Shown here: one piece after another, positions 1 to 46,054 of the stretch
How the letters are laid out: the number at the start of each line of letters is the position of its first letter
Position numbering within the stretch: the first letter of the stretch is position 1
Source: Escherichia virus ECH1
Direction: 5' to 3' (one strand)
Length of the DNA stretch: 46,054 nt
Sequence record: MN164484.2
The notes under the pieces: model-generated
The model's database searches: none
What the model was told of the DNA's origin: nothing
Seen by the model: only the letters and a program-made list of their open reading frames with translations
Program-made: the position numbers and the translations under genes

Positions 1-248
1 TGAACTCTTTCTTTATATGCAAACTTGAAACAGGCGATTCTCATATGTGTGTGATGCATTCGATTGAATAAGTCAATAGGTCAGAGAAAGAAAACGGGCA
101 ATTTACGCAACTTTTTGCAAATTCATCCTCGTCACAAGGTTACTAATTACTTTACTTATCGCGTGTAGATAATCTGCAATACTTACGCATATATCGCCAA
201 ATCACGCGCTGGTTACAAATAAATCCCTTATATATAAACAACTTAGAT

Positions 249-288
249 TTATTATTATTATTATTATATATATGTAACTATTGTAACC
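249..288. repeat. AT-rich block (TTA)n-TATATATAT followed by GTAAC-N5-GTAAC; second copy at 25878-25920
   Basis: Direct reading; about 80 percent identical to the block at 25878-25920; sits in the non-coding region upstream of the first plus-strand genes. Confidence 0.6.
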
Positions 289-527
289 ATGTCATCGGGC
301 ACGTTGATTCAAAATCCTATATTGCGCGCGACTTTTATTTATATATTAGCGGAAGGTATAGCACCACATTTAGGTCGGTTACAGCTGTCTACTCGGTTAC
401 ACCCGCAGGCATACAGGTGTCAGCAAAATATTTTGTGTACATTTTGAGTATACCGCTTGTCTACGCGTACTTGAGGTACTATAGTTATCTCACACCAAAG
501 AGAGGTGTCATTAAAAGGGTTATTTAA

Positions 528-1025
528 ATGCAAAAAGTTAGTTTGGGTGAAGTTGTACGTTACATGGTCAAGAAAGCTATCAATTCTGAGAGTGGTGAGT
601 TTGTGATTCCGGTAAGCTATATAGCCGCTCAGGTTTATGGTGCTGACCCAATCGTCATTAGCAAGGAAGACATGGAAAAAGGTGGCGTGTATGACATGAC
701 AAAATTAAAGTCTTCATACGTAGCGAACACATCCAGCAGAATGCCTGAGGTCATTGAGCGAGATTTTAGAGCTAAGATATCTTTTGTTGAAGAGCTTTAT
801 GATGATTCCTATCAGGATTGCGCCAAAATCACAATGGTTAAGGGTGCGGTAAGAAAAGGTTCACGCAAGGCATCCGACCGAATGAAAGAACAAAAGATTA
901 TTGAAGGATTCAGGGAGAAATTACTATCAGTGATGCCTGACCTAAGCCACCTGGAAGGTAATGACATAATCATAGCAGTTAACGCAATCAAGGCAATGAA
1001 AGAAATTATTAAGGAGATTAAATAA
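528..1025 (+). CDS. hypothetical early protein (165 aa)
   Basis: ORF with ATG start; preceded by a TATAGTTA -10-like element at 481-488; no recognisable motif. Confidence 0.5.
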   Translation: MQKVSLGEVVRYMVKKAINSESGEFVIPVSYIAAQVYGADPIVISKEDMEKGGVYDMTKLKSSYVANTSSRMPEVIERDFRAKISFVEELYDDSYQDCAKITMVKGAVRKGSRKASDRMKEQKIIEGFREKLLSVMPDLSHLEGNDIIIAVNAIKAMKEIIKEIK

Positions 1026-1309
1026 TGATCGACTTCAACTTTGAAGTAACAAATCTGAGCCACGAAGAGATTGCTGAAATCGCAGAGAAGAATGGCAAGC
1101 CAGTTGAGTTAATCGCCGCGAATTATAACGGAATGCGCTGGGCTTTTGAGAATGGATACGATAATGACAAGCTAGCTGAAATCGCCAAGGAAAAGATTGC
1201 TAGCAAGAAGAAGATCAAGCCGTGGTACGAGAAGCACACTCGCACTGAATGGGAGGAAGCTATGGAGTTGTGGCAGTTAATGAAGAAGCTAAACAAATTG
1301 GTAAAATAG
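1025..1309 (+). CDS. hypothetical protein (94 aa)
   Basis: ORF start overlaps the upstream stop (ATGA-type coupling); stop TAG lies inside the conserved motif at 1305. Confidence 0.5.
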   Translation: MIDFNFEVTNLSHEEIAEIAEKNGKPVELIAANYNGMRWAFENGYDNDKLAEIAKEKIASKKKIKPWYEKHTRTEWEEAMELWQLMKKLNKLVK

Positions 1310-1349
1310 CACTTTTTGTTAAAACTCCATGGAGGGAGTTTGGCATAAT
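1305..1349 (+). promoter_or_regulatory. conserved promoter-like cassette (variant AATAGCACTTTTTGTTAAA plus -10-like CATAAT)
   Basis: Member of the repeated motif family; followed by RBS GAGAGGG and a small ORF at 1380. Confidence 0.45.
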
Positions 1350-1379
1350 AGCTTCATTGAAATGAGAGAGGGATTCAAA

Positions 1380-1460
1380 ATGTACTACGACGTTATCGCT
1401 GTTTGCCTGGTTGCCATTGTTGCTATTGTTGCAATTGTTAAGATTACGGAGAAGAAGTAA
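1380..1460 (+). CDS. small hydrophobic peptide (26 aa, MYYDVIAVCLVAIVAIVAIVKITEKK)
   Basis: ATG with RBS GAGAGGG upstream; predicted single TM helix; too short for confident calling. Confidence 0.3.
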   Translation: MYYDVIAVCLVAIVAIVAIVKITEKK

Positions 1461-1588
1461 TGCATACCATACAGATTAACGATTTAATTAGCGATGCCTT
1501 ACCATGGATAATCTGGTCCCTGGGATTTATGATTGTGTATATGATTGCATCCTTCGCGGATGATGCTAAAGAGGAAATTAAAGAATGA
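1460..1588 (+). CDS. small membrane protein (42 aa)
   Basis: ATG overlaps the upstream stop (TAATG); hydrophobic core WIIWSLGFMIVYMIA; stop overlaps the next start. Confidence 0.3.
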   Translation: MHTIQINDLISDALPWIIWSLGFMIVYMIASFADDAKEEIKE

Positions 1589-1815
1589 TTACTATCAACC
1601 TTTCAGATAAACAAGCTGCCGAGCTTAAAGAGGCGATGTCTATAAAGAAAATTCGATACGGTCAGTTTGAACGGGCAGGAGTTATGAGGGAGGTGATTAA
1701 ACAGATCAACAACCAGCAGTTCGACGTAATTGACTTCGAGAGCTCTCGACAATACGAGGCGCTAAGCGTTAATGCTGCGTACCTGAATAGCTGGGATAAG
1801 GCGACTAAGAAATGA
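1585..1815 (+). CDS. hypothetical protein (76 aa)
   Basis: ORF with ATG, translationally coupled to neighbours. Confidence 0.45.
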   Translation: MITINLSDKQAAELKEAMSIKKIRYGQFERAGVMREVIKQINNQQFDVIDFESSRQYEALSVNAAYLNSWDKATKK

Positions 1816-1985
1816 ATCTTGACAAAGAGGTATTAAGAGATAATTTCATAGCTCACGGAATTGATGATGAAGATTTCCTAAATTGGTTCCTTGATAAAAA
1901 AGCCGATGAGCTTGGTTTGTACTGGTTCTCAACTGGTGCGACAATGTACGAGGCATGGGTGGCAGCAATGGAGACTAATAAATGA
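1812..1985 (+). CDS. hypothetical protein (57 aa)
   Basis: ATG overlaps the upstream stop; acidic protein. Confidence 0.35.
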   Translation: MNLDKEVLRDNFIAHGIDDEDFLNWFLDKKADELGLYWFSTGATMYEAWVAAMETNK

Positions 1986-2119
1986 TTTACATCCATACGT
2001 ACTATACAGGCAAGTTTAATAGCGTTAAGCATGTTCGCGTGCACGATAGCTACGATAGCGCAAAGGAGCAATGGCTAGTTCTAGGTGGTGACATTAATTC
2101 ATATAGAATCGCTGAATAG
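1982..2119 (+). CDS. hypothetical protein (45 aa)
   Basis: ATGA overlap with the upstream ORF; stop TAG embedded in the motif at 2115. Confidence 0.3.
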   Translation: MIYIHTYYTGKFNSVKHVRVHDSYDSAKEQWLVLGGDINSYRIAE

Positions 2120-2159
2120 CACGAATTGCTAAAACTGTATTGTGGTAATTTGATATAGT
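2115..2159 (+). promoter_or_regulatory. conserved promoter-like cassette (AATAGCACGAATTGCTAAA, 20 nt, TATAGT)
   Basis: Motif 2115-2133, -10-like TATAGT 2154-2159, leader CCATCAACAACGAGATGGAG, ATG at 2191. Confidence 0.55.
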
Positions 2160-2190
2160 TACCCCATCAACAACGAGATGGAGTATAGAG

Positions 2191-2400
2191 ATGAAAGTAA
2201 AAATTATTGATGATGATTGCACTGGATTACAGGAGTTAACGCTTACAGAATGCGGCTTTCAGATTGGTGACGTGGTAGAAGTTTCCGGCAAGTACAAAGA
2301 CGGAGGCCTGTCAGTTAAGGTTATTCGTAATACTGAGTTTGTTTCAGTCGGAAATGAGATTAGCTTACAGGAAGGCGAATACGAGGTGATTGAAGAATGA
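2191..2400 (+). CDS. hypothetical protein (69 aa)
   Basis: ORF downstream of the motif promoter with RBS GGAG. Confidence 0.5.
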   Translation: MKVKIIDDDCTGLQELTLTECGFQIGDVVEVSGKYKDGGLSVKVIRNTEFVSVGNEISLQEGEYEVIEE

Positions 2401-2576
2401 AATTTCATCAGAGCAACCCAAAGCTACAGGCCAACCACCTCGACGGATATGTGACATTTATCATTGCTCAGGCTTGCGGAATGCGTGAAGACCCACAAGT
2501 TCACACCATCCACATGACTGAAGAGCAAGCTCGAGAATTGGCTTACGAAATTCTTGAGCAATTGAATCGAATTTAA
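2397..2576 (+). CDS. hypothetical protein (59 aa)
   Basis: ATGA overlap with the upstream ORF. Confidence 0.35.
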   Translation: MKFHQSNPKLQANHLDGYVTFIIAQACGMREDPQVHTIHMTEEQARELAYEILEQLNRI

Positions 2577-2625
2577 CGCGCATAGGGCGCATTTTAACGG
2601 ACTATAATTTAAGGAATGCGATTAG

Positions 2626-2763
2626 ATGGACAACTACGAATTACCAAGCCAGTGGGCCAAAAGGATGATGTATGAAGCTAAGGACGGCAACGAGTCTACG
2701 GCATACTTTGAGCTTATGAACCTATGGAAAGAGCGAGAAGATAAAAATAGCACGAATAGCTAA
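2626..2763 (+). CDS. hypothetical protein (45 aa) with C-terminus NSTNS encoded by the motif
   Basis: ATG at 2626; last five codons and stop are the motif AATAGCACGAATAGCTAA. Confidence 0.35.
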   Translation: MDNYELPSQWAKRMMYEAKDGNESTAYFELMNLWKEREDKNSTNS

Positions 2764-2790
2764 ACGCAGTCGCCACGGCTGGCATATAAT
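2746..2790 (+). promoter_or_regulatory. conserved promoter-like cassette (AATAGCACGAATAGCTAAA, 20 nt, TATAAT)
   Basis: Motif 2746-2764; canonical TATAAT at 2785-2790; ATG at 2824. Confidence 0.5.
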
Positions 2791-2823
2791 TACTTTATCA
2801 ACACAACGAAGAGAGATATAAGA

Positions 2824-3486: not shown

Positions 3487-3561
3487 GCTCTGTTAGCTTA
3501 ATGGAAAAAGCCGCAGCCTTCTAAGCTGTTGATGGTGGTTCGACTCCACCACGGAGCGCCA
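3487..3561 (+). tRNA. tRNA-Arg (anticodon TCT), CCA encoded
   Basis: Manual cloverleaf: acceptor GCTCTGT/ACGGAGC (one G-U), D-stem GCTT/AAGC, anticodon stem GCAGC/GCTGT, loop CTTCTAA with U33 and A37, T-arm GGTGG-TTCGACT-CCACC, discriminator G then CCA. Confidence 0.8.
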
Positions 3562-6370: not shown

Positions 6371-6391
6371 CCACAAAAGCTATGATAAACT

Positions 6392-6415
6392 AGCCCCTAC
6401 CTGGGGCTTTTTTAT
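6392..6415 (+). terminator. rho-independent terminator (AGCCCC-TACCT-GGGGCT plus T6) then ATTGGAGA RBS
   Basis: Hairpin plus T-run immediately upstream of the portal gene. Confidence 0.65.
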
Positions 6416-6427
6416 TGGAGAAATGCA

Positions 6428-9381: not shown

Positions 9382-9398
9382 TAGTTAAGACTAAACTA

Positions 9399-9420
9399 AC
9401 CCGCTTCGGCGGGTTTTTTA
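9399..9420 (+). terminator. rho-independent terminator (ACCCGC-TTCG-GCGGGT plus T-run)
   Basis: Same hairpin sequence recurs at 14138-14157. Confidence 0.65.
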
Positions 9421-9504
9421 TTGCCTATCATCTCATCATTGCGTGGTCTAAAAACTCGTGTATAATGAACCCGTAGACACCTAACTGAAAAGGAACAATA
9501 AAGA

Positions 9505-10449
9505 ATGGCCATTAAATTTGATGCAGAACAAGCAAAAATCACCGCTCACCTCGAGCAAATGGGCGTAGAGAAAGCTGATGCCGCTGGTATCTGGACCGTT
9601 AAGCAGCTTACGGCTACTCTGAATCGCGCTTACGAAAAAGAATATGCGGACAACTCCGTTGTTAATATCTTCCCTGTAACCAATGAAATTCCTGGTCACG
9701 CGAAGTATTTCGAATATCCAGAATTTGATGGCGTTGGTATTGCTCAGATTATCGCTGATTACTCTGACGACCTGCCGCTGGTTGATGCTTTCATGACCGA
9801 GAAACAAGGCAAAGTTTTCCGTTTCGGTAACGCATTCCTGATTTCTACCGATGAAATTAAAGCTGGCGCTGCAACTGGTCAGTCTCTATCAACTCGCAAG
9901 CAAGCACTGGCTTTCGAAGCGCACGACAACCTGTTGGATAAACTGGTTTGGTCTGGTTCCACTCCTCACGGTATCGTAAGCGTATTCGATCAGCCTAACA
10001 TCAACAACGTTGTTGCAACGCCAAACTGGAGCGAGCCGCTTAACGCAATCAATGACGTAACCGCGATGATTGATGCAGTTGAGACTTCAACTCATGGTAT
10101 CCATCATGTGACTGATATTCTGCTTCCGGCATCCGCTCGTCGAGTAATGCAGCGCCTGGTTCCGAACACAACCCTGAGCTATGGTGAGTTGTTCACTCGT
10201 AACAACCCTGGCCTGACTATTCGTTTCCTGCAGTTCCTGGATAACTACGATGGCGCAGGTGGTAAAGCCGCTCTGGCGTTTGAGAAAAACCCGCTGAACA
10301 TGTCTATCGAGATTCCAGAAGCTACAAATGTACTTCCTGGTCAACCGAAAGATTTGCACTTTAAGTACCCGGTAACTTCTAAAGCGACAGGTTTGATTGT
10401 TTATCGTCCTCTTACGATGGCTGTAATCAAAGGAATCACCTTCGTGTAA
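9505..10449 (+). CDS. major capsid protein (putative)
   Basis: 314 aa in the expected head-module position, followed by a strong terminator; family not motif-verified. Confidence 0.7.
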   Translation: MAIKFDAEQAKITAHLEQMGVEKADAAGIWTVKQLTATLNRAYEKEYADNSVVNIFPVTNEIPGHAKYFEYPEFDGVGIAQIIADYSDDLPLVDAFMTEKQGKVFRFGNAFLISTDEIKAGAATGQSLSTRKQALAFEAHDNLLDKLVWSGSTPHGIVSVFDQPNINNVVATPNWSEPLNAINDVTAMIDAVETSTHGIHHVTDILLPASARRVMQRLVPNTTLSYGELFTRNNPGLTIRFLQFLDNYDGAGGKAALAFEKNPLNMSIEIPEATNVLPGQPKDLHFKYPVTSKATGLIVYRPLTMAVIKGITFV

Positions 10450-13819: not shown

Positions 13820-14139
13820 AGAGGGCGATGTATCTACAGTACCAGTCAGAGCCAACTGATGCCGAGCTGGAAGCTATTGGGATGCGCCGCTCTGATTACG
13901 AAGATGAAGAGCCCGAGGTTTTACACTTCGACGAGAACATGATGAAGGCTTGGGACATTTATTGTTCAATGGCTACACAATGGAGAGTCGGAGCTAACGG
14001 AGCTACAGGGCTAGATTACAACGTGCTAAATTTCCTCTTTAGAGTGTATAATGTTTCTGAAGAAGAATTGGTGCTCAGCGATTTACGCATCCTTGAAGCT
14101 AAGGCTCTTGAGATGATGGATAACCTGAGAAAAAAATAA
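13505..14139 (+). CDS. tail assembly chaperone G-T fusion via programmed -1 frameshift at 13810-13816
   Basis: Canonical X XXY YYZ heptamer A AAA AAC in the zero frame; the -1 frame is open and in phase with ORF 13828-14139. Confidence 0.6.
13828..14139 (+). CDS. gpT-like chaperone extension ORF (103 aa; may also be translated from its own ATG)
   Basis: ATG with RBS GAGGG; in phase with the -1 frame of the upstream chaperone. Confidence 0.5.
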   Translation: MYLQYQSEPTDAELEAIGMRRSDYEDEEPEVLHFDENMMKAWDIYCSMATQWRVGANGATGLDYNVLNFLFRVYNVSEEELVLSDLRILEAKALEMMDNLRKK

Positions 14140-14160
14140 CCCGCTTCGGCGGGTTTTCTA
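14138..14160 (+). terminator. rho-independent terminator (AACCCGC-TTCG-GCGGGTT plus T-run)
   Basis: Hairpin identical to the one at 9399-9420. Confidence 0.6.
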
Positions 14161-14174
14161 TTATGGAGGCTTAG

Positions 14175-17200: not shown

Positions 17201-17703
17201 ATGTTAAAAGCATCAGGTGATAAACTGAAGTGGAATGATATCCCTGAGTATAGAGATTTTGTCCTTTATTGGAAGATTTCAACAAGCAACATATCAAGAA
17301 AAAAGATTGGTGATGTTGCGGGTAATCAAATGAATGATGGATACATAATGGTTCAGGCATTAAACAAAAGAATGCTTGCTCATAGGGTTGTTTGGGAAAT
17401 GCATAATGGCAGTATAACTAATGGCATGCATATAGACCATTTAAACCACATAAGGAATGACAACAGGATAGAAAACCTAAGACTGGTGTCAAGAACAGAA
17501 AACAACAGGAATAAATCAGTCAAAAGTAAACAAAACAGGTGTTTCAGGAGTTACATTAAAAGATGGGCTATTTCAGGTTTCGATAGGTGGAGAAAAAAAC
17601 AAGACTTACATAGGAAGGTTCTACACACTGGATCAGGCTACAGCAGCAAGGAAATCCGCAGAATTTCAACTATGTTACCACAATTATCATGGGGGATTTA
17701 ACT
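17201..17703 (+). CDS. HNH-AP2 homing endonuclease, frame-disrupted (HNH in one frame, AP2 domain in the +1 frame from about 17530)
   Basis: HNH motif HRVVWEMHNG...IDHLNH...NRIENLRLVSRTENN; alternate-frame AP2-like NKTGVSGVTLKDGLFQVSIGGEKNKTYIGRFYTLDQATAARKSAE; paralog of 39194-39688. Confidence 0.6.
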
Positions 17704-20091: not shown

Positions 20092-20644
20092 TATTAAGTT
20101 AGGCCTGTCACTAGGTCGTAAGTTTGGAAAGATTCACCAGATGGCAGTGAATAGCGTGCCTGAAGCAATGCGAGCGCTTTGCTCTCAGATCCCTGCTTTC
20201 AAAGAGTTCATGAATAGCCATATAGGGCAAAACGCAAGGTACGCAGTATTTGTAGATGGTAAAAATGTGAACGAGCATCGAATCTCTGATTTTAGTGCCG
20301 TTCAGGAGATACGCATCTTGCCAATCCCGCAAGGCCGAAAGTCAGGCGGTTTGTTTCAAACAATTTTGGGTGCCGCGCTTATCACGGTAGGTATCTTCAC
20401 TGGTCAGATTTATCTTGTCGGCGCTGGCGTTTCCCTAGCTGCGGGTGGTATTGCTCAGCTGTTATCACCGCAAGCAACTGGATTGAAGACTCAGAACAAC
20501 CAAACAAGCAACCGTGCATCATACGCATTCGGATCCGCTGTAAACACAGTGGCCGCTGGATATCCAGTTTGCCTACCATATGGCTATCGAACGGTTGGCG
20601 GCTCGGTGTTTAGTGCTGGCAGCTACGCCGAAGACAATGCTTAA
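20072..20644 (+). CDS. tail assembly protein (lambda gpI-like)
   Basis: 190 aa with hydrophobic C-terminal half, overlapping the K gene stop; position before J. Confidence 0.65.
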   Translation: MTQKLIDIKLGLSLGRKFGKIHQMAVNSVPEAMRALCSQIPAFKEFMNSHIGQNARYAVFVDGKNVNEHRISDFSAVQEIRILPIPQGRKSGGLFQTILGAALITVGIFTGQIYLVGAGVSLAAGGIAQLLSPQATGLKTQNNQTSNRASYAFGSAVNTVAAGYPVCLPYGYRTVGGSVFSAGSYAEDNA

Positions 20645-20651
20645 ATATCAT

Positions 20652-20674
20652 ACCCGCCTAGTGCGGGTTTTTTA
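20652..20674 (+). terminator. rho-independent terminator (ACCCGC-CTAGT-GCGGGT plus T6)
   Basis: Hairpin plus T-run. Confidence 0.65.
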
Positions 20675-20694
20675 TTTAGTGTAGACTGGCACAA

Positions 20695-24111: not shown

Positions 24112-24117
24112 TAAATA

Positions 24118-24140
24118 AAGCCCCTTAATTGGGGCTTTTC
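24118..24140. terminator. bidirectional terminator (AAGCCCC-TTAATT-GGGGCTT) between convergent genes
   Basis: Hairpin with T-rich runs on both strands. Confidence 0.6.
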
Positions 24141-24142
24141 TT

Positions 24143-25114
24143 TTAGTAGAAGCTTGGAATAAATGGAAGTGCCATTGATATATTTGTGTCGAAAGGGAAC
24201 TGAGCGCCAGTCTGAGTTGAATAGTTACCTATTACAGAGCCAGGAACAGCCCTAACAGAGCCTCCAGACATGCAAACGCCCTTGTATCGCAAGTTGTTAT
24301 ATCCTCCAGTAACTCTAGTCGTAGCGCCACATCTAAGAATAGGGAAGAATCCACCATTTATTGACTGATATCCATTGCTTATTTGTATAAATCCACTAAG
24401 TACGAATGGTCGCCTAACGCTTGAAAAAACAATCTGACCAGAGCTATTTGACATTGTTAGTCCTGGTCCGGCTGGTGGTGGTTCATTTCTGAATATCACC
24501 AGCTGAACATAAGTACTTGCCGAAACATCATCTGTACCTCCGTAGGTTATATCCCTGCACCATATTGTTGATCCATCTGATTCAAGTGATACGTTTGGAT
24601 TATCCCACTTGCCGAATGGTATGCCGCTAACTGGTAGCGATGCCGCCCCGTTAACCTGTATGCCTCCAACCCATGCTGCTGACATTAGTCTCGAGTTGCT
24701 TGATATAGCAAGGAAATCAGTTGAGTTCTCAACGAGTATCCCTGGGCTTGATGAAGATGATGCTGGTAGAATTTCAAAACAATTACCCGCAAAGTCAATT
24801 ATTCGACCATTGGCACCATTGAAGTTACTAAGTGTTATCCTGCCAACTCCGTCATTAACCTTTTGGAATCCGTTCATGTAATAAACTTCAGGTATAACAT
24901 CGTAAGCATCAACGTGGACTGCCTTCGTTGGTAGGCAGAAAGCCGTAGAGCCAGGAGACATTGTCAATCCAAAATCCCACGAACTTGCTGGGGTTGAAAG
25001 TCCATTGGTATTTATTGATCCAGTCACAGCAGGTGCCCTTAATCCTGCCGTTATTTCCATCGCTGGTCTTCCGTCATTGAGGTCAATCAATATACCCTGC
25101 GGCATTATTTCCAC
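24143..25114 (-). CDS. putative receptor-binding/distal tail protein (323 aa)
   Basis: Gly/Ser/Asn-rich beta-type composition; co-transcribed with the lipoprotein gene; convergent with J. Confidence 0.35.
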
Positions 25115-25392: not shown

Positions 25393-25436
25393 TCATATCT
25401 TAACTGTTAGGTTTGTCTTTAGCTATTCGTGCTATT
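25393..25436 (-). promoter_or_regulatory. conserved promoter-like cassette on the minus strand (AATAGCACGAATAGCTAAA, TATGAT)
   Basis: Reverse complement of 25418-25436; leader CCATCAAAACGAAACAC; drives the lipoprotein operon. Confidence 0.5.
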
Positions 25437-25724
25437 CAACCATCTGTTATATTTATCCCTCTCCTTGATTGCCTTTTCAAGTGACTTGAATCTTAAAAGT
25501 AGCGGCATACAGTCAACACCCATAATTAAGGATTCGTCGCAGCTATTTGCGCCAGTCAGCCAAAGAGAGAAGTATTGTTGGTCGAGGCCGTAGTTCCTGT
25601 CTTTATTGACCCTAACGCTAACAACTTTAAATTTTAAACCAGCCAACTTAACCTTATCTATAAATTCTGACTTTTTCAGCTTGTTGCTCCTTTTTAGTTT
25701 ACCTGGAAATGGTACATCACCCAT
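25419..25724 (-). CDS. hypothetical protein (about 100 aa) ending in NSTNS encoded by the motif
   Basis: ATG at 25724 lies 10 nt after the minus-strand motif at 25735-25753; last codons are the next motif copy. Confidence 0.3.
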   Translation of the reverse strand: MGDVPFPGKLKRSNKLKKSEFIDKVKLAGLKFKVVSVRVNKDRNYGLDQQYFSLWLTGANSCDESLIMGVDCMPLLLRFKSLEKAIKERDKYNRWLNSTNS

Positions 25725-25734
25725 GAGATTTGTC

Positions 25735-25753
25735 TTCAGCAATTAGTGCTATT
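25735..25753 (-). promoter_or_regulatory. motif copy on the minus strand (AATAGCACTAATTGCTGAA)
   Basis: Read as reverse complement; too close to the ATG to be a standard promoter. Confidence 0.35.
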
Positions 25754-25807
25754 GGTTACGCGTAACCGATGTAACTCGATGTATACCATATCCATCCGCG
25801 GGAAATC

Positions 25808-25848
25808 CGTTACGCCATATTACGCCCAGTTACGCTTTAGTTACACTA
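25808..25848. repeat. four direct repeats of TTACRC (iteron-like)
   Basis: CGTTACGCC, ATTACGCC, AGTTACGCT, AGTTACACT read directly. Confidence 0.5.
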
Positions 25849-25877
25849 AAATATCTATATATATAAAGGGTTTAGAT

Positions 25878-25920
25878 AATTATTATTATTATCTATATAT
25901 ATAGTGTAACTGCTGTAACT
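25878..25920. repeat. AT-rich block (TTA)n-TATATATAT plus GTAAC-N4-GTAAC; copy of 249-288
   Basis: About 80 percent identical to the block at 249-288. Confidence 0.6.
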
Positions 25921-26032
25921 CATAATATTGGTATGTTGCGTTTGTTTTTCTATATGATGATTATCTTTGTTATCTGGCGTGGCTAAATGGATGTAGGGTG
26001 TGGTGCACCACATAAAAGATACCGTTACATTG

Positions 26033-26060
26033 GTTACATGTGAGTTACATTGAGGATTTA
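26033..26060. repeat. three direct repeats of GTTACAT
   Basis: CCGTTACATTGGTTACATGTGAGTTACA read directly. Confidence 0.5.
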
Positions 26061-26225
26061 TGCGGTCTGCGGTGGCTAAAAACGTAACAAAGGAGAGCCT
26101 ATACATGAAATTACGTCATTTGACGCGTAATCATAATTTATTAATCGGTGATATCTATTGGACTGCGCTGCCACCCTCTCATATGATCAACCCATCGAAA
26201 GCAAACAACCATAGAGAGACGCAAA

Positions 26226-26420
26226 ATGGCTTACTTCATCATTAAAGAGAAAAAAAACGCACTATTCGGCGACTGCTACTTCGGAGGTGAGGCAGGTTAC
26301 ACTACAGATAAGAATGAGGCAGACCGATTTGAAACGAAGGAAGATGCCAAATCTGTCCTGACCGGATACTTCACAGAAGAAGATTTTAAATTGGTTAAGA
26401 TTGTTAAGGTTAAGGAGTGA
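26226..26420 (+). CDS. hypothetical protein (64 aa)
   Basis: First plus-strand ORF after the control region; leader contains CCCATCGAAAGCAAAC. Confidence 0.4.
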   Translation: MAYFIIKEKKNALFGDCYFGGEAGYTTDKNEADRFETKEDAKSVLTGYFTEEDFKLVKIVKVKE

Positions 26421-32096: not shown

Positions 32097-32115
32097 AATA
32101 GCACGAATTGCTAAA
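32097..32115 (+). promoter_or_regulatory. motif copy between primase and tail fibre genes (operator-like)
   Basis: Palindrome centre only about 32 nt from the tail-fibre ATG, which is incompatible with the usual motif-to-start geometry. Confidence 0.35.
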
Positions 32116-32161: not shown

Positions 32162-33088
32162 TTAGTTATTCAATAAATCACTTGCCTTATATATCTTCTT
32201 CCTTATTCCGCTCTTGAATGAGTTTTCATCATTTGGTATTACCACATCAAGATTGCGATCATCAGCAACGGCGAGTAAATCAAAATCATGACGAGTACAA
32301 GCGACGCGTAACTTGTAGTCTCTAAGCGCATAAGCAACCATTTCCATGTTGTAACTGGAGTAGCAAACAAGCACACACCGGTTGCCAGTAGCAAGATGAA
32401 CGCGAACACCATCAATCCAATTATCGACCAGATAAGAGTACTCATCATCCTTAAGGGAACCAATAACAGAAACAGATTGGCGAGAATAATCTTTTGCAGC
32501 ATAACTAACATCTCCTTCCTCATTGATAAACATTACATTGCACATTTCTTCTGATATACCGTCACTATAAGCCATGAAGCACGGTATTGCGTGTATTAAT
32601 TCACCGGATTTTGTCCTACCAACATCAAATCCAAACTCGCTATAAATACCCTCGTATGTACTGAGCGGGGTTGATTCTACTCTTTCCGTCCTTTCCAGTA
32701 TCTCTAAGCATCTTTCGTGGTCAATCTGCGCGCCCATCTTGTATGGTGATGTCCGCGATGCTCTTTTGTTTGCTTTAGCTACTATCTCAACTGGAACCAG
32801 ATTTAACCAGTCACCTAATACATTTATACACTCACTAAAAGACTCTCCTCTTAGTTTCTGCACCCACAAAATTCCATCGCCTGACCCACACTGGTTGCAA
32901 ATGATTCCACCATCCCCAGGTTCACTAACTTTATCAGTCCACCTGCTACGGTCATTACCGCCACAATACAAGCATGGTTGATGCTTCTTAGTTTTAAAGA
33001 AGTTTGGGTCTGCCCCGCAAATCTGAACCATTGCGTCAGCCCATAAACCTTTCATCTTTTGTAGTACTTCTTTCTTATCGTGATTCAT
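32162..33088 (-). CDS. DNA primase (zinc-ribbon plus TOPRIM-like)
   Basis: CLYCGG...CNQCG zinc-binding motif; acidic C-terminal region; ATG 33088 with RBS GGAGGTG. Confidence 0.6.
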   Translation of the reverse strand: MNHDKKEVLQKMKGLWADAMVQICGADPNFFKTKKHQPCLYCGGNDRSRWTDKVSEPGDGGIICNQCGSGDGILWVQKLRGESFSECINVLGDWLNLVPVEIVAKANKRASRTSPYKMGAQIDHERCLEILERTERVESTPLSTYEGIYSEFGFDVGRTKSGELIHAIPCFMAYSDGISEEMCNVMFINEEGDVSYAAKDYSRQSVSVIGSLKDDEYSYLVDNWIDGVRVHLATGNRCVLVCYSSYNMEMVAYALRDYKLRVACTRHDFDLLAVADDRNLDVVIPNDENSFKSGIRKKIYKASDLLNN

Positions 33089-39139: not shown

Positions 39140-39193
39140 ACAGTAGCCGCGAAAGCGGCTATTATTGTTTTATACAAACGGGAGGGGATTTAA

Positions 39194-39688
39194 ATGGATT
39201 GGAATGATTTTCTTGAGTATAGAGATGGCAGGCTTTACTGGACTGGCCCGCATTCAACAAAACTCAAGCCAGGTGATGAGGCTGGCAGCAGTCACCATAG
39301 GTGTTATTGGTACATTCGCAGATATGACAAAACAATGTCAAGGCACAGAATCGTATGGGAGATGCACAACGGACCAATACCAGAAGGCATGGAGATAGAT
39401 CATATAAATCACGCCCCTGTTGATGACAGGATTGAAAACCTAAGAATGGTCACAAGAAGGCAAAACAATCAAAACAAGAAATTAGATGGAAGAAATACAA
39501 GCGGACACGTCGGGGTCAGCTGGAACAAGAAGACAAACAAATGGAGAGCAATGATAGGCATAAAGGGAGAGGACGGAAAGAGGAAAACTCTATACGTTTA
39601 CTATGGTGATTCTTTCGATGACGCAGTGTCAGCAAGAAAGAGAGCTGAGGTTGAGTACTCATTTCACGAAAATCACGGAAGAAGCTAG
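39194..39688 (+). CDS. HNH-AP2 homing endonuclease (intact)
   Basis: HNH motif HRIVWEMHNG...IDHINH...NRIENLRMV followed by AP2-like SGHVGVSWNKKTNKWRAMIG...YYGDSFDDAVSARKRAE. Confidence 0.75.
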   Translation: MDWNDFLEYRDGRLYWTGPHSTKLKPGDEAGSSHHRCYWYIRRYDKTMSRHRIVWEMHNGPIPEGMEIDHINHAPVDDRIENLRMVTRRQNNQNKKLDGRNTSGHVGVSWNKKTNKWRAMIGIKGEDGKRKTLYVYYGDSFDDAVSARKRAEVEYSFHENHGRS

Positions 39689-41871: not shown

Positions 41872-42236
41872 TAATGTGCATGGCTTTATCTGGATGCTCA
41901 GCAACTGAAGTCCTGACCGGATTGATTGGAAGTAAACCAGATGTCACTGCGCAGGTTGGAGCGGCTAACAATAAAGTCGGCGTTGGTGCTTCCGTTAGTA
42001 GCGACTCCAGCAATTCCAGTGAAGCCACTGTAAGGGATTCTAAGGTTGGGAGCCTGGATAGCTCAAGCGGAAAAAAGACCTCCGACAATTCGATTAAGGC
42101 ATCAACAATCACTGCCGAAAAGATTGAGATTACAAACAATGAATCATCATCACTACCGTGGATTGGTACTGGCGTTATGTTCTGCCTGGTTCTTATTCTT
42201 CTGGCAATTATCTTAAGACGTAAAAAAGCCCCTTAA
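41847..42236 (+). CDS. unimolecular spanin (lipoprotein with C-terminal TM)
   Basis: Lipobox LSGC at the N-terminus, Ser-rich periplasmic region, C-terminal TM helix then RRKKAP. Confidence 0.7.
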   Translation: MLKWIAALVMCMALSGCSATEVLTGLIGSKPDVTAQVGAANNKVGVGASVSSDSSNSSEATVRDSKVGSLDSSSGKKTSDNSIKASTITAEKIEITNNESSSLPWIGTGVMFCLVLILLAIILRRKKAP

Positions 42237-42250
42237 TAGGGGCTATATTT
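42228..42250. terminator. bidirectional terminator (AGCCCC-TTAATA-GGGGCT)
   Basis: Hairpin with T-rich runs on both strands. Confidence 0.55.
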
Positions 42251-42586
42251 TTAGCTAAATAACTCGTCGTCAGTCATGTTTCCTATGTTCATCATTTCCT
42301 TTATGTACTTACTATCATAACCGTTCAGTGCTTCGAAGTTAAACTCAAAAGGCCTCTTCAAACTCCCTCTACTAACAAACTCACCACACTTACCATCAAT
42401 ATATCCTGAGCTTAACATCTTTGCGCAGAACTCCTTTGAAGCTGCACTGCAAAACTCCCGATGTGGCAAACCTGCCGCCTTGCTAAACCTCTCTGAATCT
42501 TTGTGCTTGTATATGAATCGCGCCAAATGCTGGCGCGTAAAATAACTGTAGGACTCGCAAAATCTGTATAAATCAAGAAGAAACAT
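42251..42586 (-). CDS. hypothetical protein (111 aa)
   Basis: ORF with ATG; Cys/Phe-rich. Confidence 0.4.
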   Translation of the reverse strand: MFLLDLYRFCESYSYFTRQHLARFIYKHKDSERFSKAAGLPHREFCSAASKEFCAKMLSSGYIDGKCGEFVSRGSLKRPFEFNFEALNGYDSKYIKEMMNIGNMTDDELFS

Positions 42587-42589
42587 AAA

Positions 42590-44173
42590 TCACCCTATTA
42601 CACGTGGATTAACATAAACACGGTCATCAATCATGCAAACGTAGTTACGTTCTTCAAGCATTGGGATTAAGTGGTCCTTAATCTTCGTCATTACGCCAGC
42701 TTGAGCCTCGAATGGTTTAACCTTTCTAGCAGCCTCATACAATGCACGAAGGCTAACAAAACCTTTACCAGCTTTACCCATTTTTAAAGCCAGGTCGATA
42801 AGTTTGTTCATCTCAGCATTATCCCCAGCATGACCAGCGGCATTAGCAGAAGATAAATATGTTTTGCTTAACTCGTTAAACATTAATACCGCCTCCTGCA
42901 TGGTTTCTAATTCAATCTCACGAGACTTTTTAGGATTGCCACCTTCTTCAGATACCCAATTGCGAACAGTATGAATAACCGAAGCTATACGGATTGCCTG
43001 CTTGTCAAATTTACCAAGTGCGCCTCGTAACATAGTGTGACTGTATTTACCTCCATCACGTAAGTGCGGTTCCATATCCTGGCGAGCACGGTTTAGATAA
43101 CGCATGGCTGAATCACTAATAGTTAGCTTAACATCCACCTCACTCATGATGTTGTGAATAAGTTTAAAGTAAGTCGCCTTAAGCGCTCCATCAATAGGTT
43201 CATAAGTTGAGCGACCTTCATCATCAACAAAAACACGCTCACCTAAGAATGATTTCTCACGAACAAGCAAAAAACGCTCCGATACACCGATACCGCGAGC
43301 ACCAGCATTCATGATTGCGTTGATTGTCTCATCTTGTGCAATTACAGAGATGCAACCCAGCGCAGTAAAAGACATGTTGTTTTCAGCGTTAGCACGAGCA
43401 ATAGAAACATCGCCAGAGTCCCATGCCTTAAGAACCAATTCACTGTTTGTCTTTTTGCTCCCGTCTCCATAAGTCATGCCTAATAATGAGTTTACAGAAG
43501 TTGCTTCATCAGATATTACAGCAAAGTTACCTTGACGGAAGTTAATTCGCGCAAGACCTTCTGGAGTTGTATCAGATACTGGAAAAACAACATCGCATAA
43601 CTTCTCTAACTTCTCCTCAAGATTCTCTTTATCCTCAAATAATCTCGCCATTTCAGAAGGTGATTGCTCCTGCTTCATTTCTTTAGCGAGAGAAGATAGT
43701 TTTGCCATAATCTTTTTTCGTTCACGCTTACGTTCCTCGTTGATTCTGTCTCGTTCAGCAATCATTGGCGCAGTTGCCAGGCTGTTAATTGCTGATTTAC
43801 CAGTTGAAGGAGGTTGGCTTGTAACAACATAAAGCGCGGTTGGCTGAGTTGTTCCGTGATACTCAACGGTAAAACGACCCAGCATTGCAGAAGATACGCA
43901 GCCTAAAAAGTGCATATAGGCAGAAGATGATGGGAACTGTACTGATCGGGCGATGTTGGCTGACAGCTTGCCTACCACATCAAAATCATTCCCGAGGCTT
44001 ATTACAGGATATTTATCATTGCAATTCTCAACCTCTACTGGGTCCTTCCAGAATGACTGAGCATATCGCATACCGTTCGCTTTAATTGCCACACGAAGCG
44101 GGGAGATGCCTTGCTGCTGCGCAATAGTCATAACCTGGTCAACACTCAACTTACTGGATTCGAACTCAAACAT
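42590..44173 (-). CDS. large P-loop NTPase of unknown function (candidate replication-associated ATPase)
   Basis: 527 aa; Walker A-like QPPSTGKS; RBS GGAG; no further recognisable motifs. Confidence 0.4.
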   Translation of the reverse strand: MFEFESSKLSVDQVMTIAQQQGISPLRVAIKANGMRYAQSFWKDPVEVENCNDKYPVISLGNDFDVVGKLSANIARSVQFPSSSAYMHFLGCVSSAMLGRFTVEYHGTTQPTALYVVTSQPPSTGKSAINSLATAPMIAERDRINEERKRERKKIMAKLSSLAKEMKQEQSPSEMARLFEDKENLEEKLEKLCDVVFPVSDTTPEGLARINFRQGNFAVISDEATSVNSLLGMTYGDGSKKTNSELVLKAWDSGDVSIARANAENNMSFTALGCISVIAQDETINAIMNAGARGIGVSERFLLVREKSFLGERVFVDDEGRSTYEPIDGALKATYFKLIHNIMSEVDVKLTISDSAMRYLNRARQDMEPHLRDGGKYSHTMLRGALGKFDKQAIRIASVIHTVRNWVSEEGGNPKKSREIELETMQEAVLMFNELSKTYLSSANAAGHAGDNAEMNKLIDLALKMGKAGKGFVSLRALYEAARKVKPFEAQAGVMTKIKDHLIPMLEERNYVCMIDDRVYVNPRVIG

Positions 44174-45756: not shown

Positions 45757-45968
45757 TTTGTTACCTTTTAAGTTTTTCTTGTTATCGACATCTCTTCAAC
45801 GTACTCGCTACAACTCGGGGTTTTACTCCCGGCCCGGCATCCTAACAAAAGGACCCGCTCGGCGCTTTGGTGGGTGAGGTAACGCTTCCTCACATTGCGC
45901 GGTATCATTTACCCTTTTTAGTCCCTTTCGGGAGTGACTCAGAGTCTGCTACCGTGTCGATGAAATGA

Positions 45969-46014
45969 AGTATACGCACATCGATTCAATATGTCTTTAG
46001 CCAAAAGTGCTATT
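45969..46014 (-). promoter_or_regulatory. conserved promoter-like cassette on the minus strand (AATAGCACTTTTGGCTAAA, 21 nt, TATACT)
   Basis: Read as reverse complement; followed by an untranslated leader of about 210 nt. Confidence 0.45.
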
Positions 46015-46054
46015 TATCAGATTACCCAGAACCACTGGTATCATAAAGGCATTA

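Follow-up and report, generated by a model that had tools for sequence, protein, structure and literature searches.

A duplicated module with an AT-rich core at two divergent control regions of Escherichia virus ECH1, a candidate for twin replication origins

Introduction

Two intergenic regions of the Escherichia virus ECH1 genome contain copies of one module of ~300 bp, on which a nucleoprotein complex would assemble. Judged from the DNA, the most likely role of the pair is that of twin replication origins, a reading to which we assign a probability of about 0.45. The window analysed here is 46,054 bp long and is the whole genome of this Guelphvirus (Drexlerviridae), which is close to ACG-M12 and circularly permuted. 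The candidate origins, oriA and oriB, correspond to module A (positions ~183-401) and module B (~25754-26049). Papers on TLS (2024) and SU57 (2020) found no origin in T1-like phages (PMC11447400, PMC7718038). The module is not described in the literature on T1-like phages that we covered for origins, iterons, transcription starts and pac sites, the Rtp and T1 genome papers lying outside this set. Its conservation at the same two loci across the family makes it the strongest candidate so far for replication origins that have yet to be mapped in these phages.

Results and discussion

An earlier note on this DNA had proposed that two divergent control regions share a block of about 40 bp at about 80% identity. 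Both the placement and the block were borne out. The map is circular, and the start of the window therefore belongs to an intergenic region (45909..46054, continuing into 1..527) that is divergent too, so that each of the two regions lies between divergent genes. Alignment of 249-288 with 25878-25920 gives 81.8% identity. The homology is longer than first noted, 183-292 and 25810-25925 being 75% identical over a core of ~110 bp. Aligned locally, the two intergenic regions score 82, whereas block shuffles that preserve local composition reach 22.8 ± 3.3 (maximum 37). A common layout extends over ~250 bp with identical word orientations. On the left are TTACGC-type repeats 10 bp apart and GTTACA, then a TA tract, (TTA)n and a second TA tract; on the right are two TGTAAC words, a spacer of ~95-100 bp and two or three inverted GTTACA words.

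A count of GTTAC against the genome background had been set as the test of the proposal. GTTAC/GTAAC occurs 113 times in the 46,054 bp and 17 times in the two regions, where 2.2 are expected (Poisson 1.8e-10); the genome maximum, 12 in one 350-bp interval, is at 25751. The real repeat unit is the hexamer TGTAAC/GTTACA, not GTTAC: 12 copies fall within the 1,008 bp of the two regions (0.41 expected, 3.6e-14) and 18 in the other 45 kb. The two regions contain 14 copies of the heptamer TATATAT and the rest of the genome one, and the arrangement TATATA-N8-38-TATATAT occurs in the whole genome only at 229-273 and 25856-25903 (0.08 expected). The flanks had been described as clustered GTTAC direct repeats. 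The clustering is confirmed, but the words have fixed orientations: those flanking the AT core on either side point towards it, and a second, inverted set lies ~100 bp to the right of it. Module B also carries, beside these words, a 10-bp-phased TTACGC array that had gone unmentioned. The first observation is therefore real and stronger than first reported.

The left boundary of module B is a copy of the 21-nt repeat, ATAGCACnnnTTGnTAAA (25735..25752, minus strand), which points leftward to gp39. The left words follow on the plus strand: the perfect palindrome GGTTACGCGTAACC (25754-25767), TGTAAC (25770-25775) and TGTATA (25780-25785). In a footprint of these words that took in ACG-M12, Rtp, AHS24, Veterinaerplatzvirus, TH27 and Msk, CGATGTAACTCGATGTATAC is invariant in seven genomes. 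The CCGCGG at 25796..25801 sits within a conserved (T)CCGCGGAAA(T) element. Next comes the phased array (25810..25845, plus strand), with TTACGC at 25810, 25820 and 25830 and then GTTACA at 25840; its spacings are 10, 10 and 10-11 bp and its columns are conserved among relatives. The AT core (25852..25903) reads TATCTATATATATA (25852-25865), AAAGGGTTTAGATA, (ATT)4 (25879-25890) and again TATCTATATATATA (25890-25903). The right words are two copies of TGTAAC 9 bp apart (25905..25919, plus strand), inverted with respect to the GTTACA at 25840; they repeat 25762-25777 directly and 26024-26038 in inverted orientation. A poorly conserved spacer of ~100 bp contains GCACCACAT (26005..26013, plus strand), which is common to module A (361-369). 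The distal inverted words, GTTACA at 26024, 26033 and 26044 (26024..26049, plus strand), lie immediately upstream of, or overlap, the 5′ end of the rtp46-like gene. In relatives these positions read TATACA, TATACA and GTTACA. The rtp46 ORF as annotated in Rtp-like genomes overlaps the distal words at its 5′ end, a point against the origin reading.

Module A has the same plan. A leftward 21-nt repeat before gp01 (45996..46013, minus strand) forms its left boundary. The phased array (183..217, plus strand) consists of TTACGC at 183-188, degenerate copies at ~193 and ~202, and GTTACA at 212-217; its ACGC columns are invariant in 11 of 11 lineage-W genomes. The AT core (229..273) contains, in order, TATATATA (229-236), AACAACTTAGAT, (TTA)6 (249-266) and a TA tract (265-273). 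Two TGTAAC words 9 bp apart (273..287, plus strand) follow, and the distal inverted words are GTTACA at 378-383 and 396-401 (378..401, plus strand). The parts had originally been likened to iterons and to an unwinding element. The AT core is indeed easily melted, but "iteron-like" fits only loosely, as the words stand in small oriented groups of one to four and not in the long tandem arrays of classical iterons.

By nearest-neighbour free energies computed at 30, 50 and 80 bp, no other duplex in the genome is as unstable as cores A and B, with z = 4.6-5.0 across the three scales and 3.2-3.8 for the next best stretch. At the 50-bp scale core A (227-277) and core B tie at z = 5.0 each. The Webervirus cores are likewise the least stable DNA of their genome (z = 5.5 and 5.7). 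Both features sought in an origin, a local excess of oriented or phased words and adjacent, easily melted AT DNA, were thus found. A near-consensus, rightward sigma-70-type promoter of the early operon, TTGTCT-17-TATAGT (457..485, plus strand), is located 43 bp before the gp78 start codon, outside the core and without a 21-nt repeat. A TTGAC-type promoter occupies the corresponding position in every lineage, and the KpV522 record annotates a promoter there. Rightward promoters with a good TTGAC-type -35 stand 150-250 bp to the right of the core. The origin reading gains some weight from the cores being the two least stable segments and from the promoters lying outside them.

Could the modules be ordinary promoters only, their TA tracts and GTTACA serving as -10/-35-like boxes or UP elements that were duplicated with the operon heads? 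A consensus scan does find GTTACA-16/17-AATAAT on the minus strand in both cores, GTTACA-N16-TATAAA is readable on the plus strand of B, and TAAAAT or TATAAT comes directly after the phased array or GTTACA in several relatives. We nevertheless consider this very improbable. Matches in the core reach 9/12 at best and are no commoner than in shuffled sequence, GTTACA lacks the TTG of a -35, and good promoters exist elsewhere in each module. Among relatives (TTA)n shifts in 3-bp steps, from 4 to 8 copies, and any -35/-10 pair spanning it therefore loses its spacing.

The 21-nt repeat belongs to a family described for TLS, T1 and Rtp (PMC11447400). It has 20 matches in the ECH1 genome (0.62 expected), none of them in a core or word array; two flank the modules and point leftward. 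The module is an element different from this T1/TLS repeat. Neither module contains a DnaA box (TTWTNCACA), of which the genome has 5 with 5.2 expected; the clustered boxes of a DnaA-dependent oriC-type origin are thus absent. The GC skew, scanned over the genome, tracks the coding strand only and is for that reason uninformative on the origin. Module B matches nothing in E. coli genomes or plasmids, and these therefore show no satellite or replicon with the module. When viral contigs were scanned with AATATCTATATATA, most of those retrieved were AT-rich and unrelated, so that the scan was uninformative.

We also considered a structured element, either a single-stranded hairpin or cruciform or a small RNA made from the conserved block. 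As single-stranded DNA the core of B with its flanking GTTACA/TGTAAC folds better than shuffles (z = -3.3), and the TA tracts are self-complementary. However, no such signal is seen in module A (z = -1.0), in module B of Rtp (+1.4) or in that of T1 (0.05). Rfam covariance models match nothing in the modules, and their only match anywhere in the genome is a tRNA-Arg (3487-3558). A conserved hairpin or cruciform was rejected because the folding signal is confined to module B of ECH1, and a structured element of any of these kinds is extremely improbable.

The paired module is present at the same two orthologous loci in Rtp, T1, TLS, AHS24, Veterinaerplatzvirus and Webervirus. Footprinting shows that cores and flanking words are conserved, with the surrounding intergenic DNA full of indels. 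The layout is kept while the word differs by lineage, and both modules of one genome share the same word. In ECH1 TGTAAC occurs 5 and 7 times in the two modules and 18 times elsewhere; in T1 the counts for TGTAACA are 2 and 4, with 0 elsewhere. Webervirus uses GTAAGAT (4 and 10 in the modules, 7 elsewhere; 5e-24), and there 9 of 9 copies of GGTAAGAT fall inside the two modules. GCGGTAGAT is the module word in loci L173 and L177. TLS-like phages carry TGTTCAC and its relatives, with a weaker signal. The most enriched module word in Rtp is TCCGCG (5 and 2 copies, 9 elsewhere). An IHF-like WATCAANNNNTTR between the TA tracts of many relatives is absent from both ECH1 modules. A word that changes by lineage within a constant layout implies a phage-encoded, sequence-specific binder. 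The same changes argue against promoters alone, since plain sigma-70 boxes would not become GGTAAGAT, GCGGTAGAT or ACCCCAG by lineage in the same or close hosts.

Two more distant phages carry an analogous module beside a homologue of gp09, a predicted helicase described below. In L212 TGTAAG words surround (AAC)11 immediately upstream of a helicase-primase operon. In L213 ACCCCAG words surround (TAG)4 and TA tracts, which are the least stable DNA of the locus; this module directly follows the helicase gene, beyond a terminator, and is ~5 kb from terS. The gp09 homologues of the two are 34-37% identical to gp09. The third distant locus, L214, has no clear module, and the small proteins adjoining the L212 module have no detectable homologues in Drexlerviridae. 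That an analogous module stands beside an MCM-like helicase gene in two distant phages adds further weight to the origin reading.

Module B heads the recE-erf-ssb operon, and 1.7 kb separate module A from gp09. Since each module stands at the head of an early rightward operon, their location is explained equally well by a purely transcriptional role. The modules could be architectural or operator elements for early transcription without origin function: a phage regulator would switch the rightward operons (gp78 onward; rtp46-like, recE, erf, ssb) and the leftward ones, by looping between the proximal and distal word sets with the AT core as a flexible or bent hinge. We regard this as the main rival to the origin reading, though somewhat unlikely. 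Divergent promoters flank each module, and of the rightward operons only the two headed by the modules lack a 21-nt repeat. The distal words precede the rightward -35 by 20-100 bp, and some Webervirus genomes have a word that overlaps the -10 (TAAGAT). Inverted word sets ~100 bp apart would suit looping, and the IHF-like site between the TA tracts in many relatives also speaks for this role. Against this, the distance from word to promoter varies over that 20-100 bp range, and the most conserved part is the core, 150-250 bp from the promoters, and not promoter-proximal DNA. A hinge, moreover, need not be the least stable DNA of the genome. The L213 module, downstream of a helicase gene and behind a terminator, is not in a divergent control region at all. 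Finally, gp29, the one recognisable helix-turn-helix regulator (Cro/YdaS-like), is better matched to the palindromic 21-nt repeats than to the module words. Of the two roles originally offered, a replication origin or a regulator-bound divergent promoter region, the finding of a duplicated, conserved module with an unwinding-prone core between divergent promoters leaves both standing, with some weight gained by the origin.

A pac recognition region is a further, very unlikely candidate, in which the small terminase would bind words on both sides of a cleavage core as at P1 pac or SPP1 pacL/pacR. P1 has a single pac, whose hexamers carry GATC and are Dam-regulated, with an IHF site and a centre cut by terminase. 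The modules recall it in having hexamer words on both sides of a central region and, in relatives, an IHF-like site; they differ in that a second full copy lies well away from the mapped genome end. In the classical T1 literature packaging forms a single series that starts from one pac site, which is at odds with two equivalent copies per genome. Module A stands ~215-230 bp inside the left end of the T1 genome (repeat_region 1..2800) and of the TLS genome, and TTAGATTTAT in module A of ECH1 resembles the P22 pac core AAGATTTATCTG. TLS numbering starts, near module A, at a pac site whose position comes from restriction mapping, with likeness to P22 pac as the only basis for refining it (PMC11447400). 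Module B, however, is an equally good copy 20-26 kb away, and the left ends of T1 and TLS are close to A alone. Module B moves with the recE operon, even where the operon is inverted in Webervirus, and the L213 module lies by the helicase gene, well away from terS. A better candidate for pac is a GATTG-rich repeat region specific to A, which coincides exactly with the sequence starts of T1 and TLS.

In Pfam and PHROG searches the genes adjoining the modules revealed no recognisable DNA binder; gp78 is a DUF7174 protein and the rest are of unknown function. The candidate helicase is gp09 (42590..44173, minus strand), a DUF3987 protein predicted to be an AAA+ helicase closest to MCM. Its model (mean pLDDT 88.7) has a C-terminal winged helix at residues ~450-527. 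All 35 of the top 35 Foldseek hits are MCM chains (probability 1.0, TM 0.30-0.37), and a PDB sequence search with gp09 gave nothing significant and no match to P4 alpha. From this model, the winged-helix C-terminus is the leading candidate for the binder of the words, and we infer that gp09 acts at the modules as helicase and possibly as binder. In a small sample the winged helix does not follow the word consistently: that of Webervirus is the most diverged (37%), which fits its different word, but that of T1, which shares TGTAAC with ECH1, is only 44% identical. We note that MCM winged helices often bind proteins instead of DNA. The zinc-ribbon primase gp30 (32162..33088, minus strand), of the T7 gp4/P4 alpha type (PF08273, E = 3.7e-10), would be a candidate partner of gp09.

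Several known systems resemble the modules in part. SPP1, a pac-type siphovirus, has two origin regions, oriL (inside gene 38) and oriR, with boxes for one phage origin-binding protein, G38P, beside an AT-rich stretch; G39P and G40P (DnaB-type) are its loader and helicase. Modules A and B likewise are two separate regions with repeated boxes by an AT-rich stretch, but G38P, G39P and G40P are unrelated to the proteins here, and the words, like the TA-tract/microsatellite core and the MCM-like helicase, belong specifically to Drexlerviridae. In P4 the same short word, TGTTCACC, occurs at ori and crr, 4.5 kb apart, and is bound by the C-terminal winged helix of the alpha primase-helicase; only ori fires. 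The likeness lies in two cis regions with the same word, in gp30 belonging to the same Pfam family and in the TGTTCAC of TLS-like modules. In P4, however, primase, helicase and DNA-binding domain are one polypeptide, whereas gp30 and gp09 are separate genes.

The iterons of SaPI/PICI origins flank an AT-rich region thought to melt, the gene for the Pri-Rep helicase is beside the origin, and initiator specificity co-evolves with the iterons. The L213 module, directly 3′ of its helicase gene, is similar. Each island, however, has one origin and a Rep specificity domain shown experimentally; here there are two modules and a candidate binder. Lambda ori and iteron plasmids also place phased repeats (here TTACGC, at 10 bp) beside AT-rich DNA that unwinds, and transcription close by is a plausible activator. 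Lambda ori is inside the O gene and classical iterons are 17-22 bp in longer arrays; the modules differ in these respects and lack a DnaA box. T4 oriF and oriG suggest a possible sub-variant of the origin reading, with an activator-dependent -10 after the phased array, then an unwinding element, and an R-loop that could prime. The -10-like box is, however, degenerate in module A of ECH1.

If the modules are origins, initiation might proceed as follows. A phage-encoded protein would bind the oriented words TGTAAC/TGTATA, and possibly the phased TTACGC array too; these words flank the core as inverted sets and appear again ~100 bp to its right. Binding would open the (TA)n-(TTA)n-(TA)n core, aided by negative supercoiling between the leftward 21-nt-repeat promoters and the rightward TTGnnn-17-TAnnnT promoters and, in some relatives, perhaps by an IHF-like bend between the TA tracts. 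The MCM-like helicase gp09 and the primase gp30 would then be loaded on the opened core. Host DNA polymerase III would presumably take over afterwards, because no phage polymerase gene is annotated in the genome. Late replication is probably RecE/Erf recombination-dependent, and the operon for these proteins starts at oriB. A more specific version of the twin-origin reading is of archaeal/eukaryotic or SF3 style. Inverted initiator words would bracket the TA-tract/microsatellite core and the MCM-like helicase would load itself head to head. The words would co-evolve with the DNA-binding surface of the helicase, and (TTA)4-8, (AAC)11 and (TAG)4 would be a mutable spacer that tunes half-site phasing and origin strength. 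We hold this version to be unlikely.

Conclusions

T1 belongs to the seven classical T phages, and Drexlerviridae are common both as candidates for therapy and as contaminants in the laboratory. The analysis yields two short, precisely bounded candidate origins, conserved across the family, with a clear prediction for the binder. If they are origins, they would provide a cis element for T1-based replicons and phage engineering and for the study of MCM-like helicase loading in a bacterial virus. If they are operators instead, the modules would define the family's early-gene switch. In either case the lineage-specific words offer a handle for pulling down the protein that binds them.

A duplicated intergenic module

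The genome carries two copies of one non-coding element, modules A and B, in which short oriented repeats (words) flank a core of TA tracts around a (TTA)n array. A block of approximately 40 bp had been noted earlier as common to both places at about 80% identity; its identity is 81.8%, and the homology is longer than noted, extending over a 110-bp core (183-292 versus 25810-25925, 75% identity). Local alignment of the two intergenic regions scores 82, against 22.8 ± 3.3 in block shuffles that keep the local composition. The clustering of GTTAC claimed in the earlier note withstands a formal count, GTTAC/GTAAC reaching its genome maximum at 25751 with 12 in 350 bp versus 2.45 per kb genome-wide. 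The hexamer TGTAAC/GTTACA is the real repeat unit: A and B, 1,008 bp together, contain 12 copies where 0.41 are expected (Poisson 3.6e-14), and the other 45 kb contain 18. TATATAT has 14 copies in these regions and a single one in the rest of the genome, and TATATA-N8-38-TATATAT is found, genome-wide, only at 229-273 and 25856-25903 (0.08 expected). Nearest-neighbour free energy ranks the two cores lowest in duplex stability genome-wide (z = 4.6-5.0 at 30-, 50- and 80-bp windows; next best 3.2-3.8), in line with the AT-rich, unwinding-like element proposed from inspection.

Escherichia phage vB_EcoS_ACG-M12 (NC_019404; Drexlerviridae, Braunvirinae, Guelphvirus) is collinear with the window by sequence comparison and equal in length, 46,054 bp. 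The divergent arrangement described for 25760-26225 stands. The "window start" (1-527) is also divergent and intergenic but does not begin at base 1: genomes of ACG-M12-like phages are circularly permuted, and the region is thus really 45909..46054 joined to 1..527. Module A lies here, between gp01 (leftward) and gp78 (rightward); module B lies between gp39 (leftward) and an rtp46-like gene (rightward). Identity to ACG-M12 is 99% over 25700-26300 and 95% over 1-600. In a position-wise comparison 4,196 positions differ, some possibly through compensating indels, so the window is a variant of ACG-M12 and not an identical sequence. Within 1-527 there are 28 such differences. Several differences hit GTTAC words; ACG-M12 reads GTTACatGTAAC at about 139-150, and at 25914 it has TGCAAC where the window has TGTAAC.

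Both modules follow one identical oriented layout. At the left end sits a leftward copy of a 21-nt repeat (A 45996-46013 (-); B 25735-25752 (-)), followed in B only by the palindrome GGTTACGCGTAACC and then TGTAAC, TGTATA and CCGCGG. TTACGC-type units come next at 10-bp spacing, the last being GTTACA (A 183-217; B 25810-25845). To the right of this array lie TA tract 1, a short segment with TTAGAT at its end, the (TTA)n array (A, six units, 249-266; B, four units, 25879-25890) and TA tract 2. Two copies of TGTAAC, 9 bp apart (A 273-287; B 25905-25919), are inverted relative to GTTACA across the core. A spacer of ~95-100 bp containing GCACCACAT leads to two or three GTTACA in inverted orientation (A 378-401; B 26024-26049), and the rightward gene closes the layout, preceded in A by the promoter TTGTCT-17-TATAGT (457-485). 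A perfect palindrome of 10 bp, TTCCGCGGAA or CCGCGGAAA, is repeated in the Rtp modules; TCCGCG is found 5+2 times in the modules versus 9 elsewhere, and CCGCGG 2+1 versus 0. It is kept as CCGCGGAAAAT in the B modules of several genera and reads CCGCGGGAAAT at 25796-25806 in the window. This CCGCGG-type palindrome is probably a second protein-binding site.

Conservation of the layout and change of the word

The double-TA-tract pattern occurs at exactly two orthologous loci in Rtp, T1, AHS24, Veterinaerplatzvirus and TLS, and 14 module copies can be aligned. Footprints among genomes of the window's own lineage show conservation of the core and its flanking words (A about 183-280; B about 25754-25922), with CGATGTAACTCGATGTATAC invariant in seven genomes and many substitutions and indels in the DNA beside the conserved blocks. 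Most genera have arrays of 4-8 TTA units at each of the two modules; no array reaching four units is found in T1 or TLS.

Alignment of the gp09 helicase was used to fetch 80 related loci. In other lineages among these, module A keeps its layout with a different word: TGTTCAC, TGTTAC or TGTTAT in TLS-like phages, GCGGTAGAT at two further loci (L173 and L177) and GGTAAGAT in the Klebsiella Webervirus group. In the complete Webervirus genome PV189484 all nine copies of GGTAAGAT fall inside the two modules, GTAAGAT is found 4+10 times there versus 7 elsewhere (5e-24), the two cores are again the two least stable windows, and module B is inverted along with its recE operon. T1 has the 7-mer TGTAACA 2+4 times in its modules and nowhere else. 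The word is therefore common to both modules of a genome and changes from phage to phage where the hosts are identical or closely related, which suggests a phage-encoded binder co-evolving with it and argues against a host binder such as IHF, Fis or DnaA. DnaA boxes are absent from both modules.

Two metagenomic phages (L212 and L213) with gp09 homologues of 34-37% identity have an analogous module beside the helicase gene; a third distant locus examined (L214) has no clear module. The L212 module fills the divergent region directly upstream of an operon reading small gene-helicase-primase-SF2 helicase-exonuclease. It holds 10 of 21 copies of TGTAAG/CTTACA and is centred on (AAC)11 (9391-9423). 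The L213 module is immediately 3' of the primase-helicase genes, holds four of five copies of ACCCCAG and is centred on (TAG)4 with TA tracts (about 9840-9890), the least stable DNA of that locus. The central trinucleotide repeat thus varies by phage in sequence and copy number, (TTA)4-8, (AAC)11 or (TAG)4; that a repeat as such is kept, and not its sequence, suggests a mutable spacer.

Replication proteins and the candidate binder

The annotation includes no DNA polymerase gene. The genome encodes a zinc-ribbon primase (gp30, PF08273), a RadD-like SF2 helicase (gp28), a Cro/YdaS-like helix-turn-helix protein (gp29), RecE, Erf and SSB. gp09 (42590-44173 (-)) is annotated as "DNA helicase" or DUF3987. 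Its AlphaFold model is confident (pLDDT 88.7), and the top 35 Foldseek matches are all MCM chains (MCM2-7 and archaeal; probability 1.0, TM 0.30-0.37). The fold predicts that gp09 is a replicative helicase of MCM-like type, encoded here by a family of classical coliphages. The model ends in a C-terminal winged helix (residues about 450-527). In Webervirus, whose word differs most, this domain is 37% identical versus 72% for the AAA+ core; in T1 it is only 44% identical, although the word TGTAAC is common to T1 and the window. TGTAAC, TGTAAG(AT) and GGTAAGAT resemble one another as if derived from a single ancestral word. A conserved binder (the helicase, the primase or the terminase, for example) would then be favoured over small ORFans that evolve fast.

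Promoters and neighbouring elements

A rightward promoter with a TTGAC-type -35 lies 150-250 bp right of the core in every lineage, and the KpV522 record annotates a promoter at that position. On the leftward side the 21-nt repeat is used; both rightward promoters at the modules are without it. An early-promoter operator or looping element lacking origin function is an appreciable, if rather unlikely, reading of the modules. Plain promoters or UP elements are improbable. The core itself was rejected as an ordinary promoter: inner matches reach 9/12 at best, a chance frequency, and would lose their spacing as (TTA)n changes length in steps of 3 bp. A structured DNA or RNA element is very improbable, Rfam giving no family in the modules and no ssDNA hairpin being conserved across them.

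The 21-nt repeat, ATAGCACnnnTTGnTAAA, has about 19 copies: on the plus strand at 1306, 2116, 2747, 5966, 13126, 18846, 27584, 32098, 33663, 36163, 37204, 39122, 39691 and 40779, and on the minus strand at 25418, 25735, 33140, 44814 and 45996 (20 matches in the window versus 0.62 expected). Its function is given as unknown in the TLS paper (PMC11447400). The repeat forms an imperfect palindrome (TAGCA-N5-TGCTA), and ~22 bp downstream of it comes a conserved -10-like box, GTATAGTTAC. This arrangement suggests that a dimeric helix-turn-helix activator, such as gp29, binds the repeat at middle or late promoters; the Webervirus equivalent is TTGCAACGAATTGCA. A perfect copy at 32098-32115 (+) has the tail fibre and primase genes, both on the minus strand, as its neighbours; here the near-palindrome may work both ways or may drive an antisense or unannotated transcript.

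We note several features of nearby and other genes. In the gp39 region (25419-25742 (-)) the annotated start, 25724, is directly downstream of the leftward repeat (25735-25752). The longest ORF (start 25742) overlaps the repeat. Neither start leaves space for the usual -10 box, and the PHROG match starts only at residue 17; the true start is thus probably further downstream than annotated. gp38 (26060-26245, +) and gp37 (26226-26420, +) match consecutive halves of PHROG 35664 (positions 28-79 and 80-143) and are jointly the counterpart of rtp46, one gene in Rtp, which appears to be split here by a frameshift, unless the frameshift is programmed. The HNH endonuclease genes gp48 (17223-17505) and gp17 (39192-39468) are paralogous, with stretches of 75-81% DNA identity; both encode endonucleases of homing type and lie inserted in the tail and replication modules, respectively. 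Intrinsic-terminator-like hairpins (GC-stem and T-run) of one similar family punctuate the late operons (6382-6416, 9388-9422, 14128-14162, 20642-20676, 24114-24146 and 42222-42254); comparable punctuation by hairpins is described for the T1 "transcriptons".

Possible functions

In T1 and TLS module A lies ~215-230 bp from base 1 of the records, a position compatible with packaging (pac). The T1 record annotates 1..2800 as terminal repeat, and TLS numbering starts at a pac site from restriction mapping, refined only by resemblance to P22 pac (PMC11447400). However, an equally good copy, module B, is found half a genome distant and stays linked to the recombination operon. A better pac candidate is a GATTG/TGATTG-rich region just left of module A and absent from module B, exactly at the record starts in T1 (1-60, 48780-48836) and TLS (1-50, 312-364), expanded in Rtp (about 45,950-46,219 and 1-120) and weak in the ACG-M12-like window. 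This may be the true recognition region, and a pac role for the modules has a low probability.

We regard the module as a duplicated, family-wide putative platform for a nucleoprotein complex, with an unwinding-prone core between divergent promoters. Its most likely function, at a probability of about 0.45, is that of twin candidate replication origins; what is left after this and the rival readings given above falls to functions outside those considered. A word-bound initiator, together with transcription-driven negative supercoiling, would open the TA/(TTA)n core, onto which the MCM-like helicase and primase would then be loaded, with recombination-dependent replication following. SPP1 oriL/oriR and P4 ori/crr are precedents for two cis regions with one initiator's words. 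In SaPI origins iterons flank an AT-rich region beside a helicase gene, much as words flank the core here and the module adjoins the helicase gene in the distant phages.

E. coli chromosomes and plasmids gave no match to module B. For TLS and SU57 the genome papers report that no origin was found (PMC11447400, PMC7718038), and no description of the module was found in the literature searched, the original T1 and Rtp genome papers lying outside that search. By analogy the module resembles known iteron-plus-DUE origins in kind. What would set it apart from a simple further example of such origins is its twin arrangement, the small inverted groups of words, the core of TA tracts and a microsatellite, and its association with an MCM-like helicase.
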